From Candidatus Jordarchaeales archaeon (GTDB lineage Archaea > Asgardarchaeota > Jordiarchaeia > Jordiarchaeales > Freyrarchaeaceae), in NCBI GenBank assembly GCA_038858525.1, contig JAWCFL010000021.1, positions 1 to 32,000 on the forward strand: a DNA stretch of 32,000 nucleotides, in the 5' to 3' direction. The position numbers and the translations under genes were made by a program. Shown here in pieces: positions 5,466 through 29,791 of the stretch (position 1 is its first letter; each line of letters opens with the position of its first letter). The notes under the pieces were generated by a model. The model had not been told where the DNA came from. It saw only the letters and a program-made list of their open reading frames with translations, and searched no databases.

Positions 5466-6627
5466 ATGAGGTTCATGTGGCGTGCTATAAGGCCAGACTC
5501 CATCAGTGTTTGGAGCAATGAGCAGGTTCTAACTCGACTTAAGCGCTACTACGCTGTCCTTAAAGATGAAAAACCGGCTAAAATGCTTGTGGCCAGAAAA
5601 GTGGAAATTGAAGACGACCTCAACGTTCCAACAGACAAACTCTGGCATCAACACCAAAGGGCTAGTGGAAAGTTCCGTAGCCTTCTCAAAGAAGTAGACC
5701 AAGGTAAAATTAATCTAAAAGATTTAGACACTCCGAAAACCTCGTACTTAGACCTAAAATTGGAGCTTGCTAGGCGAATACTGGCAAGCTGCCACTTCTG
5801 TGAAAGAAGGTGCGGCGTGAACAGACTGGAAGGCAAACATGGCGCCTGTCAGCTTAACGCAAAGGCGTACGTCTCTTCAGCATTCCTTCACTTTGGAGAA
5901 GAAGCTCCACTAGTGCCATCAGGCACAAACGCCCGAGTTTCTCTCTGGCGGTGCAATCTTCTTCAACATGTGCACGTTTAAGTGTGTCTTTTGTCAGAAC
6001 CACGATATCTCTACGGCAATAGATGGCGTTGAGGTAAACGGAGAGAAACTAGCTAGTTTAGCTCGCCACCTTAAGAGAGAAGGCGCACGAAACATAAATT
6101 ACGTCGGTGGAGACCCAACTCCTTCCGCTCATGTAATCCTTGAAGCCATAAGAAATCTCGCGTATACGGAGACAAACATTACTCAGCTTTGGAACTCTAA
6201 CTTTTACTGTAGCAAAGAGTTAATTATTCTTCTGCTTGACGTCATGGATTTCTGGCTTCCCGATTTTAAGTATGGAAACGACGAATGCGCTGAGCGTCTC
6301 TCCAAGGTTAAGCGTTACTTCGAAGTAGTATCAAGAAATCATAAGCTGGCATATGATGAGACAGTTGTAGAAGGCACTTCAGGCATGATCATACGCCACT
6401 TGGTTCTGCCAGGACATTTAGATTGTTGCACGAAGCCGATTTTGGAATGGATCGCTGAAAACACTCCGTTGGCTCTCGTGAATGTAATGTCGCAGTATCA
6501 CCCTGACTACCTAGTGCCTCAAAACCCTGATTACAGAGAAATAAATCGCAGAGTAACAGTTAAAGAAATGAAGGAAGCATACGAGTACGCAGACAAACTA
6601 GGTTTAGTATGGAGACCAGTCAGTTAA
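5466..6627 (+). CDS. pflX: PflX-like radical SAM protein, spliced gene join(5466..5928,5957..6627), 377 aa
   Basis: The ORF track shows two frames (5466-5981, 5968-6627). Removing 5929-5956 gives HFGEEAPLVPSGTIFFNMCTFKCVFCQN, the canonical PflX motif with CxxxCxxC. Also CHFCERRCGVNR, GGDPTP, DFWLPDFKYGNDECA, IIRHLVLPGH and NVMSQYHP. Confidence 0.88.
5929..5956 (+). other. 28-nt BHB-type mRNA intron in the pflX-like gene
   Basis: Central helix GCAC(5923-26)/GTGC(5951-54); 3-nt bulges AAA(5927-29) and AAT(5955-57); inner helix CGCC/GGCG plus GAG/CTC; outer helix AG/CT. Cuts after the second bulge nucleotide give ACA A|TC = Thr-Ile in frame. Confidence 0.88.
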
Positions 6628-13141: not shown

Positions 13142-14360
13142 TTACCCCTCTCGTTCCATTATCTCGCTGAACTCTAACACTTTAAGCTCAGGTGGTTTTT
13201 TAACTATGTTTTCTTGGCGTACCCCTACAATCCATTTTACTCCCTTCTCCTGCGAGATATCAATGAGTCTTTGTGTCACTATACCATCTAAAATTACGGC
13301 TCCAACTTTCTCATTGAAGCTTCGAAGGAAATCTGCGAGCTCTGATACGTCGACTTCAGCCATCATGTTAAGTGCCTCCCCCAGGATCCTCGCCTTACCC
13401 GAGCCGAAAACTGCATTTGAATGATCAGTTATCTCCTGCGGAACCTTAGTTGCTTTTTTAATTATCTGCACTTTCTTTTCTTCACGCTTCTTCCAGCTCT
13501 CGTGTTCAGCGATTTGCTCGACGGGAACCTTATTGCTCAAGGCCTTCATAATCTCCTTAAATGTAAGCTCTTCAACTTCGCGGCCGGGAGGCGCCCTCGC
13601 CACATAGTCTATTTCTGCAATTTGCAGCAACTCCTTTAAGATTAAGTCACCACCTCTATCACCATCTAAGAAGGCTGTAACGGTCTTTCTCTTGCTAAGT
13701 TCAACGATAGTTCTAGGAACACTTGTTCCCTCCACCGCTATAACGTTCTTAAAACCATACTTTAGCATGTTCAAGACGTCAGCTCTACCCTCAACTACGA
13801 TGATCTCATCCGCTGAATCTATTTCTGGCCCGGCGGGTAACCCCTCCTTTCCATACTTACAGATTTCCTCGACTCTTGCCGCTTCAATGACTTTATTAAT
13901 TATTTGTTCAGTTTCAGGGGAAACCTCCTCAGACCATCTTCTGAGAATTTCAATAGCTCGTTCGACGATCCTCTTACGCTTACTTTCTCTTACATCCTCT
14001 ATGGACTCAAAGGTTACTTTAGCACTGCATGGACCAATTCTATCAATGGTTTCAAGTGCCGCCGCAAGAATAGCTGTCTCAACCTTATCAAGACTCGAAG
14101 GGATAAATATCTCCCCTACAGCTTTTCCTCCATGCGTCTCAATCTCTGCCTTTATTCGCCCTATCCTACCCGTACGTTGGAGCTCCCTTAAGTCCATCTC
14201 GTCGCCGAGAAGCCCCTCCAATTTGCCTACGTGAGCCCTCAGCTCTACGTAATTGGCCGAAAATCGCACCTATAACATCAGGCTTCTCGACGACACCATT
14301 TACCTCTATTTTAGCTTTTATAATATATTTTATCGTGCCAACATCATTTCGGTTAGCCAT
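13142..14360 (-). CDS. dnaG: Archaeal DnaG (primase family, exosome-associated), spliced gene join(14360..14253,14221..13142), 395 aa
   Basis: The N-terminus KYIIKAKIEVNGVVEKPDVIGAIFGQ is in one frame and EGLLGDEMDLRELQRTGRIGRI in another; removing 31 nt gives FGQLEGLLG. TOPRIM motifs VEGRADV and DGDRGG. GGAGGTGA SD upstream of ATG 14360. Confidence 0.88.
14222..14252 (-). other. 31-nt relaxed-BHB mRNA intron in dnaG
   Basis: Minus strand reads GGCC-AA|T-TACGTAGAGC-TGAGG-GCTCACGTA-GGCA-AA|T. Inner hairpin is 5+4 bp, the central helix is GGCC/GGCA (3 WC pairs + G.A) and both 3-nt bulges are AAT. BHB-rule cuts restore the frame. Confidence 0.8.
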
Positions 14361-18882: not shown

Positions 18883-20043
18883 ATGGCTGAGAGGCTGTTT
18901 AAAATTGCCACAGAAATAGCAGAAGAAGCCACTAAAAATGACAGGAAAGGCAATTATAAACAAGCTTGTCAGCAATACTTGCAGGCAGCAGAGATTCTTT
19001 ACAAATGTATACAGCTGACGAGGAACCCCCAGCTTAGGGAGGTCTACTTCGAAAGGGCGCAGAAATATGTTAACCGGTGTAAGCAGATTAAAACCACTCT
19101 TGCAAAGCCGCACCAGCCCTCCTTATCTGTCGAGACTAGAGAAAAAGGAGAAAAGGGAGATGGAGGCGAATTAGCTGAGGCGATCGCTGAAACTATACTT
19201 GTCGAGAAGCCATCTGTTAAGTGGGATGACGTGGCTAATCTCGAAGCGGCTAAGAAGGCTCTCCGTGAAGCGATAATCCTTCCCATGTTAAGGCCAGACT
19301 TCTTCAGGGGCGCTCGAAAACCCTGGAAGGGAATTCTGCTCTTCGGTCCTCCTGGTTGTGGGAAGACTCTTCTAGCAAAGGCTGTGGCATCAGAAGTTAA
19401 TGCTCACTTCTTTAATGTATCTGCCGCAACGCTGGTAAGCAAGTGGCTTGGCGAGTCTGAGAAGCTGGTGAGAGAACTTTTCAGAACGGCAAGGAGTAAG
19501 CAGCCAGCGATAATCTTTATCGACGAAATCGACAGCATAGCTACCACTAGGGACAGAGAAGAGGTAGGTGGGGAAAGGAGGCTTAAAACCCAGTTCATGC
19601 AGGAGATCGACGGCGTTACTTCTTCCGATAAGGATCGAATTGTTGTTTTGGGGGCCACCAATGTGCCTTGGGAGCTTGATCCTGCAGTACGTAGACGCTT
19701 TGAAAAGCGAATATACCTTGGATTACCTGAGTTTGAAGCGCGACGTGAAATATTCAGAATACATACGAAAGGCGTCGACCTGTCTAGCGACGTGAACTTT
19801 GATGAGTTAGCAAAGCTAACAGAAGGTTTCTCTGGAGCAGACATAGCGATCCTCTGCCGGGAAGCCCTAATGGCACCCATAAGAGAGCTGGATGAAGCCG
19901 GGCTCTTAACTAAGAGCGACGTGAAGATCCGTCCAGTAACACGAGACGACTTCCTCGAAGCATTAAGAGTAGTTAAGCCGTCAGTCTCCCCCTCCGAATT
20001 AACGAAGTTCAAGGAGTGGGCTAAAGAGTTCGCCATTGACTAA
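18883..20043 (+). CDS. vps4: Vps4-type AAA ATPase with N-terminal MIT domain
   Basis: Three-helix MIT domain (A...D..GNY..A...Y..A), WKGILLFGPPGCGKT, pore loop SKWLGESEK, RRRFEKRIY and C-terminal helix VS..EL.KF.EW..EF. Confidence 0.9.
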   Translation: MAERLFKIATEIAEEATKNDRKGNYKQACQQYLQAAEILYKCIQLTRNPQLREVYFERAQKYVNRCKQIKTTLAKPHQPSLSVETREKGEKGDGGELAEAIAETILVEKPSVKWDDVANLEAAKKALREAIILPMLRPDFFRGARKPWKGILLFGPPGCGKTLLAKAVASEVNAHFFNVSAATLVSKWLGESEKLVRELFRTARSKQPAIIFIDEIDSIATTRDREEVGGERRLKTQFMQEIDGVTSSDKDRIVVLGATNVPWELDPAVRRRFEKRIYLGLPEFEARREIFRIHTKGVDLSSDVNFDELAKLTEGFSGADIAILCREALMAPIRELDEAGLLTKSDVKIRPVTRDDFLEALRVVKPSVSPSELTKFKEWAKEFAID

Positions 20044-20060
20044 ACCAAGGAGGCGTCTCT

Positions 20061-20744
20061 ATGGAAAAAATGAGAGAGAAAGAAGAAAAGCGTGAAAAGG
20101 AAGTTGAAGAAAAAAGGGAGCACTCTCACTCTATAGAAGACGCCACGAGGAAGCCCTTATTAGTTGACGAACTTGAACATGTCATGCAAAGAATTTCTGA
20201 AGCCGAGGCTTTGCTTTTAGGGGTGCCTGCGAAACCCATAATGGTCCTCCGTCCTCCACCCATTCCGGAGTGGAGTGTTAAAAGTCCTTGGATGTTCACC
20301 AAGCCAAAAGAGGAGCGTTTTCTTAAGTCTTGGCGAGAAGAGTGGGCTAAGTACGTTCTTGAGTGGGCTGAAGCGCTATTAATTCACCTAATAGGAGTAA
20401 ACGAAATGCTCTCAAGAGATCTTTTCAAAAATCTTTCTATTGACGACCTAGTAGATATACTAGACTATATGTGTCTTAAAAACTGGTGTAAATGGTGGGA
20501 TAAGAAAAAAACGCTTATTAGAATTTACTGGAAATCCCTTGAAGAATGGAAAGAAGTAATATGGTCATGGGCTGTTAGCCAAGGACTTGAGTACATAAGT
20601 GTAATGGACCTCGCTAACGTTAAAGAAGCATTCAGCACAATTCCTCGAGAAGAACTTGAATTTCTCCTCAATAACTTGGTTAAGGAGAAACGGGCTGTAT
20701 GGGCTGATAAAAAAACCAAAACAATAAAACTGATTTTTACTTAA
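20061..20744 (+). CDS. vps25: ESCRT-II Vps25-like tandem winged-helix protein with an N-terminal extension
   Basis: SPWMFTKP...W..EW...V resembles eukaryotic PPFFTLQP...W..L; WWDKKKTLIRIYWKSLEEWKEVIWSW resembles EWLDK.K...I.WR.PEEW...IY.W. Directly downstream of vps4. Based on motif recognition only. Confidence 0.75.
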   Translation: MEKMREKEEKREKEVEEKREHSHSIEDATRKPLLVDELEHVMQRISEAEALLLGVPAKPIMVLRPPPIPEWSVKSPWMFTKPKEERFLKSWREEWAKYVLEWAEALLIHLIGVNEMLSRDLFKNLSIDDLVDILDYMCLKNWCKWWDKKKTLIRIYWKSLEEWKEVIWSWAVSQGLEYISVMDLANVKEAFSTIPREELEFLLNNLVKEKRAVWADKKTKTIKLIFT

Positions 20745-25844: not shown

Positions 25845-26666
25845 TCAGCTCCCTCTATTTTTTAGTAATGGCATGAAATACTTTTCACGTATTTCTTTTC
25901 CTTTTTCGATCGCTATTTCTAATGCTTCATTAATATCTTTCTCACTTAAGACCCCATCCTCGCTTTTCTGAACAGCAACCACCCTGCCTTCTTTATCTGT
26001 TACTATAGTGAGCCGGCATTCCATTGCTCTTTCTTCATCTAACATTGGATCGAGGAGGATGTGTTCTCCAATCTTGCTGAACGTAAGTGAGACCGGCAAA
26101 TCTCTTATTGGTAAGAGTTCCTTATCGTCTAAGCGCTTTACTTCGCCGTTTTTCACTTCCACTTTAGGTATTCTTGTTGAGAGGAGAGCTGCAACTGCCG
26201 CATACGATGCGGCGTCAAAAAGATTTCCGTTATCGTCAAGAATGTAAAGGTCTATAAAGAGAATCCAAACTTTTTCTCCCGGGATTATGCAAAGTTTTTC
26301 CATATCTACCATTTCAGTTTCTCTTATACCTCTATCAACTACCCGGGCTAGCTCTATAGCATCTTCTTGTGGAGGGCCTGCTTCAAATAATGGAGACGCC
26401 AAAGGAATAAGCTCTGCGTTACAAGTGATAACACCTTTATTCGGCTCATCCGGAAACGGAGCACCTATCTCTGCTTTGACTCCCGCAATGACCTTTGTTT
26501 CGCCTAAGGATACTTTAGCGGACCCCTCCGCTTTCTTAATGAGCTCCGTCTCTATAGTTATAGGCCTCATTTCTCTCAGTGTTCTTCCATCTGCTCTTCG
26601 TCCCTTGTTTGCCAAGGAAATAATGAATCTTCTCTCAATTTCCGAAAGGACGTCATGCATTCTCAT
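25845..26666 (-). CDS. rrp42: Exosome complex component Rrp42
   Basis: [26 protein letters not shown] and DDNGNLFDA motifs. Confidence 0.95.
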
Positions 26667-27429
26667 CTCCTCCTTCTTCCTCTTCTTCTTCAGACTCTTT
26701 TCTTACTGCCATGTATCTTTCTATCAGTGCTTGCCTTTGAAGTTTATATATCTCCATGCATCCGTCTATTGCCATTTTGTACGCCTCAATAAATTCTTCT
26801 TTAGTCATACGCCCATCCATCTGTAGAAGTGTAATAAACCGTTTTCTAGGCATAACTGCTACCGGCATATCCGCTTCTCCCAGTTTGTCTTCAACGTCGT
26901 TAGGATCTAAAACTAGTTGTCCATTGACTTTACCTACGGCGCAGGCAGTAACAAGGTCCCGCATAGGTACACCTGCATCTGCAAGCGCTAGGGACGCCGC
27001 TGTTATGCTTGCGCACCTTGTACCTCCATCAGCCTGAAGTACTTGAATATAAACATCTATAGTTGACCTTGGAAAGTTCTTGAGGAATATTGCAGGCGCT
27101 AGAGCACCTTTGATCACTTTTGATAACTCCAGTTCTCTTCTTGAAGGCGCTGGGTTTTTTCTTTCCTCCACCGAAAAAGTAGCCATCCTGTAAACGCATT
27201 GCAGAATTGCTGTATCTGGTCTAGCTAAGTGTTTTGGATGCAACTCCCTTGGCCCGTAAACGGCCACAAGAATTTTGTTGTTTCCCTGCTCTATATACGC
27301 TGATCCATCAGCTCTCGAAAGTACGCCTACCTCAAGTTTTATCGGTCTAAGCTCACGAGCGCCTCTACCATCCACTCTAATGCCGTTTTTTAAAAGTTCT
27401 TCTCGAGAATATTTACTACCTGAATTCAT
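26653..27429 (-). CDS. rrp41: Exosome complex exonuclease Rrp41
   Basis: [36 protein letters not shown] and LLQMDG motifs. Confidence 0.96.
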
Positions 27430-27448
27430 TGGTTTTCCTCCATTCGCC

Positions 27449-28135
27449 TCAAGTTTTTTGGGAAATTAATTCTCGTATTCTATCAGTAAGTCCCGTCGTG
27501 TGCGCTTCTTTTTCAATCTGCCTTATTGCTTTAACAACCAGCTCCTCACTTTCTGGGCTACTACCAGACACCCAAATTAACCCATTCTGCCCTATTACGA
27601 TTTGGCATTCTGTCTTCTTCTTGATCATATTTATCATTGACCCTCTCCGTCCGATAAGCCTCGGTATCTTCGTAGGTGCCATTCTCACTAGTCTTCCCCC
27701 CTCAAGCTTTCTAAGATTTTTTTCTTTCATAGTAAGTACTGGAGGTTGTGTTCTATCAAATGCCAAAATCTTTGCAACTATTAAGTCTCCAATATCATAT
27801 ATTCGTCGCAAATCCGTTTTAACGGGGTCAACTGGTTTTCCTGAGACATTCATAGGGCTAAGGGTAGCTAGATAGGGAGCAAGTATGTCAACATCCCAAG
27901 AAGTTAACTTGACATTAACTATTTTACCTATAACAGTATCGCCCGGTTTGGGCATGTAAACGCCTTCGAGAGGGACGACAACCACACTGTCCTCTCTAAT
28001 TTCTGCCAGTCCAATTACTGTTGCCAGAATTTTGTCTCCTTCTCTAAATGTTCCTTCACCGGACTTGAACTTATTTCCTTCAGCCAATATTTCGCCCGGA
28101 AGCACAATCTGTCTTTTTTTAACGTGAACAACCAA
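27449..28135 (-). CDS. rrp4: Exosome RNA-binding cap protein Rrp4
   Basis: IVLPGE, S1 domain, [13 protein letters not shown] domain and GQNGLIWV. Start set at TTG 28135 after an AGGAGG SD. Confidence 0.94.
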
Positions 28136-28178
28136 CGTCGTTTCCTCCTTTTTCCTAAAAAATATTTTCAATAGGTTG

Positions 28179-28898
28179 CTAGAGAAATTTGATTTCTGCT
28201 TTGCCCTTGGTTGCCATGTTGACCGCATTTATTAATTGTCCTTTTAGCCCTCCTGGTATTTCGATCAGAGCTATCCAAGAACCGTCGGCTTGCCACTCCC
28301 CCTTAACTATGTTCCCTAATCTTTCTAGGACGCTATATCCTTTCCCTGCATGTTCTGGTGGGAATTTAACGGCTACTCTGATCGTCTCCATTTTTATAGG
28401 GATCACTTTCTGTATTTGTTTGAGAACGTCTTTTACCTGTTCTTCTGCGCTTCTCCAAATATCTATTTGGACCTTTGCCTCCTCCATTGCGTTTTCGATT
28501 CGTGTGGGTGGATGGGGGAGCCCTGTCTGAGGGTTTACACATGTCCTAGCTAAGATCGCTATTATCTTCTTCTTTTTTTGTTCCAAGAATTCGCGGCGTT
28601 GCTCTTGGGTTAGTTGCAGCTCACCTTTTTTTAATATGACCTTTGCGACTTCGAAGACGTCTGTTGTACCAAAGACTCTTTCTATGTCCTCTTCTGTTGC
28701 TTTTTCCCCTCTACGTGCGTTTTCATATATTACGAAGGTTTGAATTATATCTGTGGGATCCACATTTTTTCCCGTCTTATACTCCCAAGCTTTCCTAACA
28801 TCCACTAATATTTCAAATGTTTTCCCCTCTTTCTCGTATCTGGCGATCGATGTATTTTCTCCGAATTCTACTCTTTTTTCTCCTCTAATCTGTGACAT
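28179..28898 (-). CDS. sdo1: Ribosome maturation factor SBDS/Sdo1
   Basis: FEILVD, FGTTD, KGELQLT and NPQTGLPHPPTRIENAM motifs. Confidence 0.95.
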   Translation of the reverse strand: MSQIRGEKRVEFGENTSIARYEKEGKTFEILVDVRKAWEYKTGKNVDPTDIIQTFVIYENARRGEKATEEDIERVFGTTDVFEVAKVILKKGELQLTQEQRREFLEQKKKKIIAILARTCVNPQTGLPHPPTRIENAMEEAKVQIDIWRSAEEQVKDVLKQIQKVIPIKMETIRVAVKFPPEHAGKGYSVLERLGNIVKGEWQADGSWIALIEIPGGLKGQLINAVNMATKGKAEIKFL

Positions 28899-28917
28899 AA
28901 AGCATCTTTCCTCGCCT

Positions 28918-29634
28918 TTAACTTAGGTTTTCAATATATTTCTGTACTTCTTCCGCTGACAGTTTACGGAATTTTTTCGTTTGTACGTCAACTATGGCGA
29001 TCTCCACTCTTGAGGCGTCGAATTCCCCTTCAAGAACTGCTTTCAAAGCGGTTAAAGACAGTTTAATTCCTTCCTCTAAGTTTAAATCTTTCTTATATTC
29101 TTTCTCAAGTATCTCTTTTGCTTTTTGTGAACCGGCACCTATTGCTGTAGCCCAGTATCCCCAGTAGGTTCCCGACGGGTCAGTCATAAAAAGTTTAGGG
29201 CCTGCATCGTCAACTCCTGCGATGAGGAAAGAGACGCCGAAGGGTCTAACTCCTGCATGTTGTGTGTAAACTTGTTTTAAATCTCCGATATATTTTGTTA
29301 AGCTTTCAACGCTGATTGGCTCATCGTAGCTTAACTTATTAACTTGAGCTTGAACACGTGCTTGATCTACGAGGACACGTGCATCTGCGGTTAGACCCGC
29401 TATCGCAGCACCTATATGTTCATCTATTACAAAGATCTTTTCTACGCTTTCCGGGTCTTGAAGTGATAAAATTCTTTTTTCGACAGCTAATACTACTCCA
29501 TCTTTACATCTGACTCCTATAGCAGTAGTTCCTCTTCGGACAGCTTCAATGGCATATTCAACCTGGAAGAGCCTTCCATCGGGAGAAAATATTGTGATAG
29601 CTCGGTCATAGCCTAAACCTGGCGCAGCAAACAT
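28918..29634 (-). CDS. psmA: Proteasome alpha subunit
   Basis: YDRAITIFSPDGRLFQVEYA signature; ATG 29634 follows a GGAGG SD. Confidence 0.97.
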   Translation of the reverse strand: MFAAPGLGYDRAITIFSPDGRLFQVEYAIEAVRRGTTAIGVRCKDGVVLAVEKRILSLQDPESVEKIFVIDEHIGAAIAGLTADARVLVDQARVQAQVNKLSYDEPISVESLTKYIGDLKQVYTQHAGVRPFGVSFLIAGVDDAGPKLFMTDPSGTYWGYWATAIGAGSQKAKEILEKEYKKDLNLEEGIKLSLTALKAVLEGEFDASRVEIAIVDVQTKKFRKLSAEEVQKYIENLS

Positions 29635-29791
29635 ATCTTGAACCCTCCCTGCCTCATTACTGTTTAACTTTGACAAAGCCTTTAGCTCGCTACCTTAGAA
29701 AACTCAAACAGGTTTATTTATTTTTCTACCCTTTTTATCGGTTTCCTCTTTCACAGTAGCTCATCAAGGCATGTTTTCAAAAATAGCTTTT

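Follow-up and report, generated by a model that had tools for sequence, protein, structure and literature searches.

The window, that is, the whole 32,000-nt stretch of DNA analysed here (positions 1 to 32,000 of contig JAWCFL010000021.1, assembly GCA_038858525.1, from a hot-spring Candidatus Jordarchaeales archaeon), contains at positions 5466–6627 of the plus strand what is very probably one gene for a 377-aa radical SAM enzyme, the coding sequence of which is broken by a 28-nt bulge-helix-bulge (BHB) intron. The insert itself, at 5929–5956, can with high confidence be regarded as a real mRNA intron of the tRNA type, namely the type cut by the splicing endonuclease EndA, and both cleavage and ligation of this mRNA are predicted from its sequence. 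The preliminary description of this DNA had proposed that the mRNA is spliced by the tRNA machinery, and that proposal gains support from several directions: 14 sequences share the insertion site and show covarying inner helices and frozen exon codons; purifying selection acts on both exons; the C-terminal half is without a usable upstream start codon in 9 of the 14; and the genome encodes an EndA alpha subunit, a second EndA paralog and RtcB, together with five further genes that obey the same cut rule.

The interrupted gene and its predicted fold

Two overlapping open reading frames (ORFs) in different frames, 5466–5981 (171 aa) and 5968–6627 (219 aa), are found on the plus strand of the window, where all features described in this section lie. 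Removal of 5929–5956 fuses 5466–5928 to 5957–6627 and gives a single 377-aa ORF, ...EEAPLVPSGTIFFNMCTFKCVFCQN, in which the restored protein stretch reads ...PSGTIFFNMCTFKCVFCQN. Exon 1 of the radical SAM gene (5466–5928), as defined by its ORF and translation, consists of 154 codons plus the A of an Ile codon; it has a Cys-rich region toward its N-terminus, ends with the residues ...PLVPSGT, and is 47–84% identical to the N-terminal parts of full-length homologs. The intron (28 nt, phase 1) begins at base three of the 5' bulge and ends at base two of the 3' bulge. Exon 2 (5957–6627) supplies the TC of the Ile codon, continues with FFNMCTFKCVFCQN... to the stop codon, and encodes the radical SAM core with the cluster motif CTFKCVFC (CxxxCxxC).

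The 219-aa ORF matches the Radical_SAM family PF04055 with 52.5 bits (cut-off 29.5; E 8.5e-14). A total of 5289 homologs of exon 2 were found, full-length members being 355–383 aa, and its nearest relatives are truncated calls of 182–233 aa, some of which are labelled Jordarchaeia. Of the earlier assignment to a PflX-like radical SAM protein, the radical SAM part stands, on the PF04055 match and the CxxxCxxC motif, and for the PflX part, TIGR02493 (the pyruvate formate-lyase activating enzyme equivalog) scores 29.6 bits, below the NCBIfam cut-off of 231.75; "PflX / putative PFL-activase-like" is a loose label taken from source names only.

As had been anticipated, the unspliced reading frame stops at 5981 and yields a 171-aa product lacking CxxxCxxC, and annotation pipelines do miscall the gene: public gene calls are separate products of 163–170 aa and 219 aa, instead of one of ~375 aa. 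Gene callers split or truncate such genes, which biases both the metabolic reconstructions made for these lineages and the estimates of their completeness.

The preliminary description had placed a textbook BHB motif at 5921–5959, and its helices, bulges and bulge placement are borne out. The central helix pairs an exonic 5' strand, GCAC (5923–5926, inside the Gly-Thr codons GGC ACA), with an intronic 3' strand, GTGC (5951–5954), the latter being identical in all 14 variants. Bulge placement is canonical, in that the 5' bulge, AAA (5927–5929), lies between the central and inner helices and the 3' bulge, AAT (5955–5957), between the central and outer helices; the three nucleotides of the 5' bulge are unpaired in all variants (AAA or AAT), and the 3' bulge is AAT or ATT in all of them. 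The inner, or intron, hairpin (5930–5950) is formed by CGCC (5930–5933) with GGCG (5947–5950) and by GAG (5935–5937) with CTC (5943–5945), closed by the loop TTTCT (5938–5942). The outer helix, which joins exon to exon, is weak and pairs AG (5921–5922) with CT (5958–5959).

Cuts are predicted after the second base of each bulge, and hence at 5928/5929 and 5956/5957, on the basis of the BHB rule together with restoration of the frame. The predicted spliced RNA consists of ...CAGGCACAA joined to UCUUCUUC, i.e., ...GGCACAA^UCUUC (a caret marks the junction here and below), and the predicted junction peptide of the spliced gene is ...PLVPSGTIFFNMCTFK. A search of the window against Rfam covariance models at gathering thresholds gave zero matches, and ARAGORN found no tRNA genes in it. 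A self-splicing group I or group II intron was considered and rejected, in view of this lack of an Rfam match in the window and because 28 nt is far too small.

Conservation and covariation among relatives

An insert is present at the identical codon in 14 distinct sequences, with lengths of 27, 28, 31, 32, 33 and 34 nt, and its carriers belong to two families of the window's order (Jordarchaeia/Freyarchaeia) and to three genera of one Helarchaeota family. Whole-genome searches covered eleven genomes of the window's order, one of which gave no match with the query used; all ten matching genomes have the insert at the exact codon. The length of the insert is 28 nt in the window's genus; a second genus has 27 nt and a second family 31 nt, and further variants, of 32 and 34 nt, come from metagenome contigs. 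The sister family of the window's family includes the complete Freyarchaeia-1 chromosome CP147778, which is an insert carrier, with its ortholog near position 1,863,900. In the separate three-genus family that includes Helarchaeota Hel_GB_A, inserts of 28 and 33 nt occupy the same site with an inner-helix sequence that is unrelated. The insert is missing from 78 uninterrupted homologous loci, and the remaining families of the phylum have GT(I/V)FF uninterrupted. Excision by the BHB rule yields GTIFF ahead of CxxxCxxC in all 14 variants.

The preliminary description had allowed that the 28 nt could be an artefact of assembly. This did not hold, as the insert recurs in independent assemblies of four sources, namely JGI, ENA, Logan and the NCBI genomes. 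It should also be mentioned that two records bearing the intron at this site, JAPDJY010000039 ("Thermoproteota archaeon") and DATKTP010000021 ("Candidatus Deferrimicrobium sp."), are placed by GTDB in Asgard genomes, and the bins or the records are likely mislabelled.

The alignment of orthologs that had been proposed for presence or absence of the intron and for compensatory base pairs is now available, with 14 carriers set against the 78 uninterrupted loci. Covariation was assessed on a MAFFT alignment of the 14 variants, with the BHB structure supplied by the analyst. Paired cells amount to 89% in this alignment, as against 32–55% for slid-partner controls, and double-sided compensatory changes are seen in six of the eight aligned inner-helix pairs; the observed covariation was reached by 0 of 500 shuffles. 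RNAalifold, run without a supplied structure, arrives at the same central and inner helices and the same 5' bulge. All 14 variants have a paired central helix, the one with GGT ACA retaining a U.G pair, and the bulge pairs are AAA/AAT or AAT/ATT. The inner hairpin varies from 4 to 9 bp, with pairing kept through wholesale replacement of its sequence.

Because the Gly-Thr codons form the exonic strand of the central helix, they should be frozen in carriers, and this expectation holds: GGCACA is used by 13 of the 14 carriers, compared with 4 of 69 distinct intron-less homologs, which between them use all 16 synonymous Gly-Thr hexamers. Although the carriers are related, synonymous sites in them have otherwise reached saturation. 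Purifying selection is seen in both exons, with dN/dS of 0.04–0.18 in each and saturated synonymous sites.

Splicing machinery, other interrupted genes and competing explanations

A profile search of the genome (2.09 Mb, 92.7% complete) gave two matches to PF01974 (EndA), of 110.7 and 80.6 bits, and an RtcB match of 601.5 bits. An EndA of 191 aa is closest to, and aligns end to end with, the catalytic alpha subunit of the Aeropyrum pernix heterotetramer (3P1Z_B; E 1.6e-48), and in a divergent EndA paralog of 198 aa no His was noticed at the triad position when the sequence was read by eye. Asgard archaea have been assigned an (alpha-beta)2 EndA with an L1 loop that confers broad specificity (PMC5829648), and such a broad-specificity enzyme would fit a motif whose outer helix is minimal.

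The same cut rule restores cbf5, EF-2, dnaG, leuD and hypD in this genome. In cbf5, a 30-nt insert (contig C1:177182–177211, plus strand; central helix CACT/GGTG, bulges AGA/AAA, inner stem 10 bp) divides the catalytic Asp codon G^AT (GHAGTL^DPKVTG), at the same nucleotide position as in crenarchaeal cbf5 (PMC2738675); the position shared by this genome and Crenarchaeota is explained either by an intron of deep ancestry or by insertions that have struck one site more than once. EF-2 has a 29-nt insert (contig C4, ~81117–81145, plus strand; central helix ACGT/GCGT, bulges AGA/AAA, inner stem 9 bp), the excision of which restores DTPGHV^DFTGHV. The EF-2 gene is single in the genome (one EFG_IV match), and because EF-2 is essential and apparently single-copy in this 92.7%-complete assembly, the organism very probably must splice such mRNAs. 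In the window itself, the dnaG gene (Toprim protein, ORF 13142–14269, minus strand) extends upstream in another frame, and a 31-nt insert at 14222–14252 (minus strand) forms a relaxed BHB (GGCC/GGCA with a G.A mismatch, bulges AAT/AAT); its excision joins ...VIGAIFGQ to LEGLLGDEMDLRELQ. Excision of a 29-nt insert in leuD (contig C10, minus strand) restores ...DYIIPGKYKF..., and that of a 16-nt insert in hypD (contig C44, minus strand) restores ...HVCGT^HEQ.... In the genes checked, the inserts fall in codons of conserved motifs. With regard to tRNA, ARAGORN reported only 11 tRNA genes in the genome, of which 8 are interrupted, in keeping with the 92–95% of intron-bearing tRNA genes reported for this class (PMC11291895). 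Most tRNA genes of the genome are probably too intron-fragmented for standard tools.

A homology-free scan of the genome for BHB geometry joining a pair of open frames, each at least 70 codons long, gave 628 matches versus 661 for a control with mirror-image bulges, with no excess at any stringency or with A-initial bulges. The scan recovers the window's intron and that of cbf5, but adjacent genes are bridged by chance, and it is unusable for an intron count.

Several observations weigh against an EndA-type intron at 5929–5956. Chance produces ~600 BHB-like motifs joining long open frames in the genome and, because they are so common, the motif alone proves little; the case rests on comparison. 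In that comparison, the carriers are related lineages, so that counts across them are not independent. The outer helix comprises merely 2 bp: its G-C pair is present in 14/14 variants, its other pair is A-U in nine, G-U in two and unpaired in three, and the helix is absent from the RNAalifold prediction on the 14 variants. On this point the "full" hBHBh' motif of the preliminary description is overstated, and the motif is better described as HBh'-like, a relaxed BHB; (alpha-beta)2 EndA accepts relaxed forms (PMC5829648). Furthermore, the same protein results from any 28-nt deletion starting at 5926–5929. Cutting the bulges does restore the frame with no residue gained or lost, as had been stated, but because four deletions are equal in this respect, the ORF alone leaves the cut sites unfixed, and it is the BHB rule that selects one of them.

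The fold predicted for the window's own sequence at this site also counts against splicing as proposed. An upstream exon segment, GTGCC (5913–5917, plus strand), could pair with 5922–5926 and rival the central helix; this competing exon hairpin is predicted to be ~4–6 kcal/mol more stable than the BHB fold, and the minimum-energy fold uses it (-19.0 versus -12.5 kcal/mol for the BHB fold). The hairpin (GTGCC with GGCAC) forms only where the Val codon is GTG, which is the case in the window and three relatives. In 8/14 variants, unconstrained folding gives the BHB as the structure of minimum energy.

This hairpin bears on an alternative in which the BHB intron is real and acts as a regulated on/off switch, splicing being tuned by the competing hairpin or by EndA availability. 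The preliminary description had taken splicing to be an on/off gate. The enzyme is impossible from unspliced mRNA, in the window's genus the hairpin ties up the exonic strand of the central helix, and gates of this kind exist in eukaryotic XBP1 and HAC1. However, the hairpin is missing from 10/14 variants, no regulatory element is conserved around the site, and the same kind of insert occurs in EF-2, cbf5 and dnaG, which are needed constitutively. The gate finds no backing in these data, and we consider a switch unlikely; the hairpin, being confined to 4/14 variants, was rejected as a conserved regulator. As essential genes have the same kind of insert, constitutive splicing is indicated, and the most likely situation is that this intron is spliced constitutively, as one case of lineage-wide reliance on tRNA-type mRNA splicing.

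A split gene, with separate translation of the two ORFs (N-terminal, 171 aa; C-terminal, 219 aa) into subunits and with the hairpin as an intergenic spacer, is very unlikely. Gene callers do annotate the two ORFs, and in the window's genus an ATG stands one codon ahead of the first cluster Cys. In 9/14 variants, by contrast, no start codon (ATG, GTG or TTG) precedes that Cys in the frame of the C-terminal half, and the cluster motif would be untranslatable. A spacer would need neither a covarying BHB fold nor frozen exon codons, and the tails of the N-terminal halves past the insert are unconserved out-of-frame readings.

Translational recoding of the kind known from phage T4 gene 60, in which ribosomes would bypass (hop over) the insert or frameshift across it, is still harder to credit. 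It could draw on the stable hairpin after the take-off region and on the CAA before both boundaries in the window, but the lengths of 27–34 nt span all three phases, the in-frame 27-nt variant contains TGA, and take-off and landing codons are not matched (ACA versus GCA). A hop from ACA to GCA would moreover lose the conserved Ile in the second family, where TTC follows GCA, whereas BHB excision gives GTIFF in 14/14 and what is conserved corresponds exactly to the elements of an EndA substrate. A pseudogene or an assembly artefact would account for the broken DNA frame and has next to no probability, given strong purifying selection on both halves, saturated synonymous divergence and the presence of the insert in JGI, ENA, Logan and NCBI assemblies.

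For an EndA-type intron, the proposed mechanism would be as follows. In the pre-mRNA, the exonic GCAC (codons GGC ACA) would pair with the intronic GUGC to give a 4-bp helix between two 3-nt bulges, inside which the intron hairpin of 4–9 bp would stack. The splicing endonuclease, probably an alpha/beta heteromer, would cut after the second base of each bulge, and RtcB would ligate the exons and probably circularise the intron. Ligation would recreate the Ile codon A^UC and, with it, the conserved iron-sulfur motif ...GTIFFxxCxxxCxxC; without splicing, only the 171-aa fragment with no cluster motif would be made.

Insertion history, known systems and neighbouring genes

Four genomes of another family (1.3–1.4 Mb genomes) have a different BHB insert, of 29 nt, in this radical SAM gene, where it lies between the second and third Cys codons (CxxxC^xxC). 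Its central helix pairs GCGT with ACGC, one genome having GCGT instead with two wobble pairs kept; its bulges are ATA and AAT or ACT, and its inner helix has 7 bp. Excision by the same cut rule gives C-A-Y-C-Q-N-Y. This second-site insert is independent of the insert at the first site (site 1), the one present in the window.

In a tree of 107 homologs, the backbone of which is unresolved, the Jordarchaeia carriers of the site-1 intron (support 98) and the Helarchaeota carriers (support 100) form separate clades, and an intron-less lineage, f8, adjoins the former. A single clade of all site-1 carriers is not rejected by the AU test (p = 0.554), the constrained tree being slightly better. One old gain followed by losses, a transfer, and two gains at the same site are all candidate histories of the site-1 intron. 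A mobile element was considered as a source and rejected: the 28-nt intron is single-copy in the genome, other matches being only chance ones of 10–14 nt.

A broader scenario is conceivable and is put forward here only tentatively, as it is rather doubtful as a whole: Jordarchaeia would rely on genome-wide EndA/RtcB mRNA splicing (at least six genes), the site-1 intron would be older than the divergence of Jordarchaeia from Helarchaeota, and that of cbf5 would come from the Asgard-TACK ancestor. If this is true, the archaeal lineage ancestral to eukaryotes had introns in protein genes and removed them with a protein enzyme. The 14 natural variants offer a clean test substrate for EndA specificity, and the gain, loss and site preference of introns in protein genes become directly testable.

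Among known systems, the cbf5 pre-mRNA of Crenarchaeota (Desulfurococcales and Sulfolobales) has a BHB intron (Watanabe 2002; Yoshinari 2006; Yokobori 2009; PMC2738675), and a study from 2020 gives cbf5 as the only case reported in an archaeal coding sequence (PMC7714728); a 2025 paper on EndA cites the cbf5 work alone. In the literature searched, crenarchaeal cbf5 is the sole archaeal coding sequence with a reported BHB intron, and no BHB intron in Asgard protein genes was found described in the literature to 2025–2026, a search in which subscription journals were mostly not included. As in crenarchaeal cbf5, the radical SAM intron is a short BHB intron in the coding sequence, is placed within the codons for a catalytic motif, has to be excised for the protein to function, and is present in some relatives and absent from others; a heteromeric EndA is a further common feature of the host, presumed here from the two paralogs. 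Unlike cbf5, it concerns a radical SAM gene in the Asgard phylum, it has a minimal outer helix, and it belongs to one gene family with BHB inserts at two sites in different lineages. The window's intron is not that of cbf5, a gene which in this genome is interrupted at the published position by a 30-nt insert of its own.

Non-canonical tRNA introns of Freyarchaeia/Jordarchaeia and Atabeyarchaeia (PMC11291895; bioRxiv 10.64898/2026.10.13.758758) resemble the radical SAM intron in lineage, in motif and in their length of tens of nt, and presumably have the EndA/RtcB machinery in common with it. In contrast to these tRNA introns, its substrate is an mRNA, and excision must also restore the reading frame; those two reports, like the work on Asgard introns in the literature searched, deal with tRNA genes only. 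In Haloferax volcanii, HVO_1309 has a 46-nt BHB intron in its 5' UTR that is processed by EndA, and the circular intron was detected (PMC7714728). The two cases are alike in that a BHB motif in mRNA is a substrate of the splicing endonuclease, which is a prediction for the gene studied here. They differ in that the radical SAM intron lies in the coding sequence rather than in a leader, and in that HVO_1309 was shown experimentally, whereas processing of the radical SAM intron is predicted from sequence.

In eukaryotes, XBP1 and HAC1 mRNAs undergo stress-regulated splicing by IRE1, which is the endonuclease, and RtcB. The XBP1 intron is 26 nt long and is bounded by hairpin loops; its removal, followed by RtcB-type ligation, shifts the frame and leads to the active protein. 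The parallels with the radical SAM gene are a small intron independent of the spliceosome, removal that shifts the frame and, as predicted here, ligation of the RtcB type. The differences are that EndA would take the place of IRE1, that the introns are not homologous, and that XBP1/HAC1 splicing is a stress switch.

Elsewhere in the window, a proteasome-SBDS-Rrp4-Rrp41-Rrp42 exosome cluster occupies 25845–29676 (minus strand), and a Vps4-like AAA ATPase with MIT and Vps4_C domains (18883–20744, plus strand) adjoins an ESCRT-II family gene, the latter two being typical "eukaryotic signature" genes of Asgard archaea.

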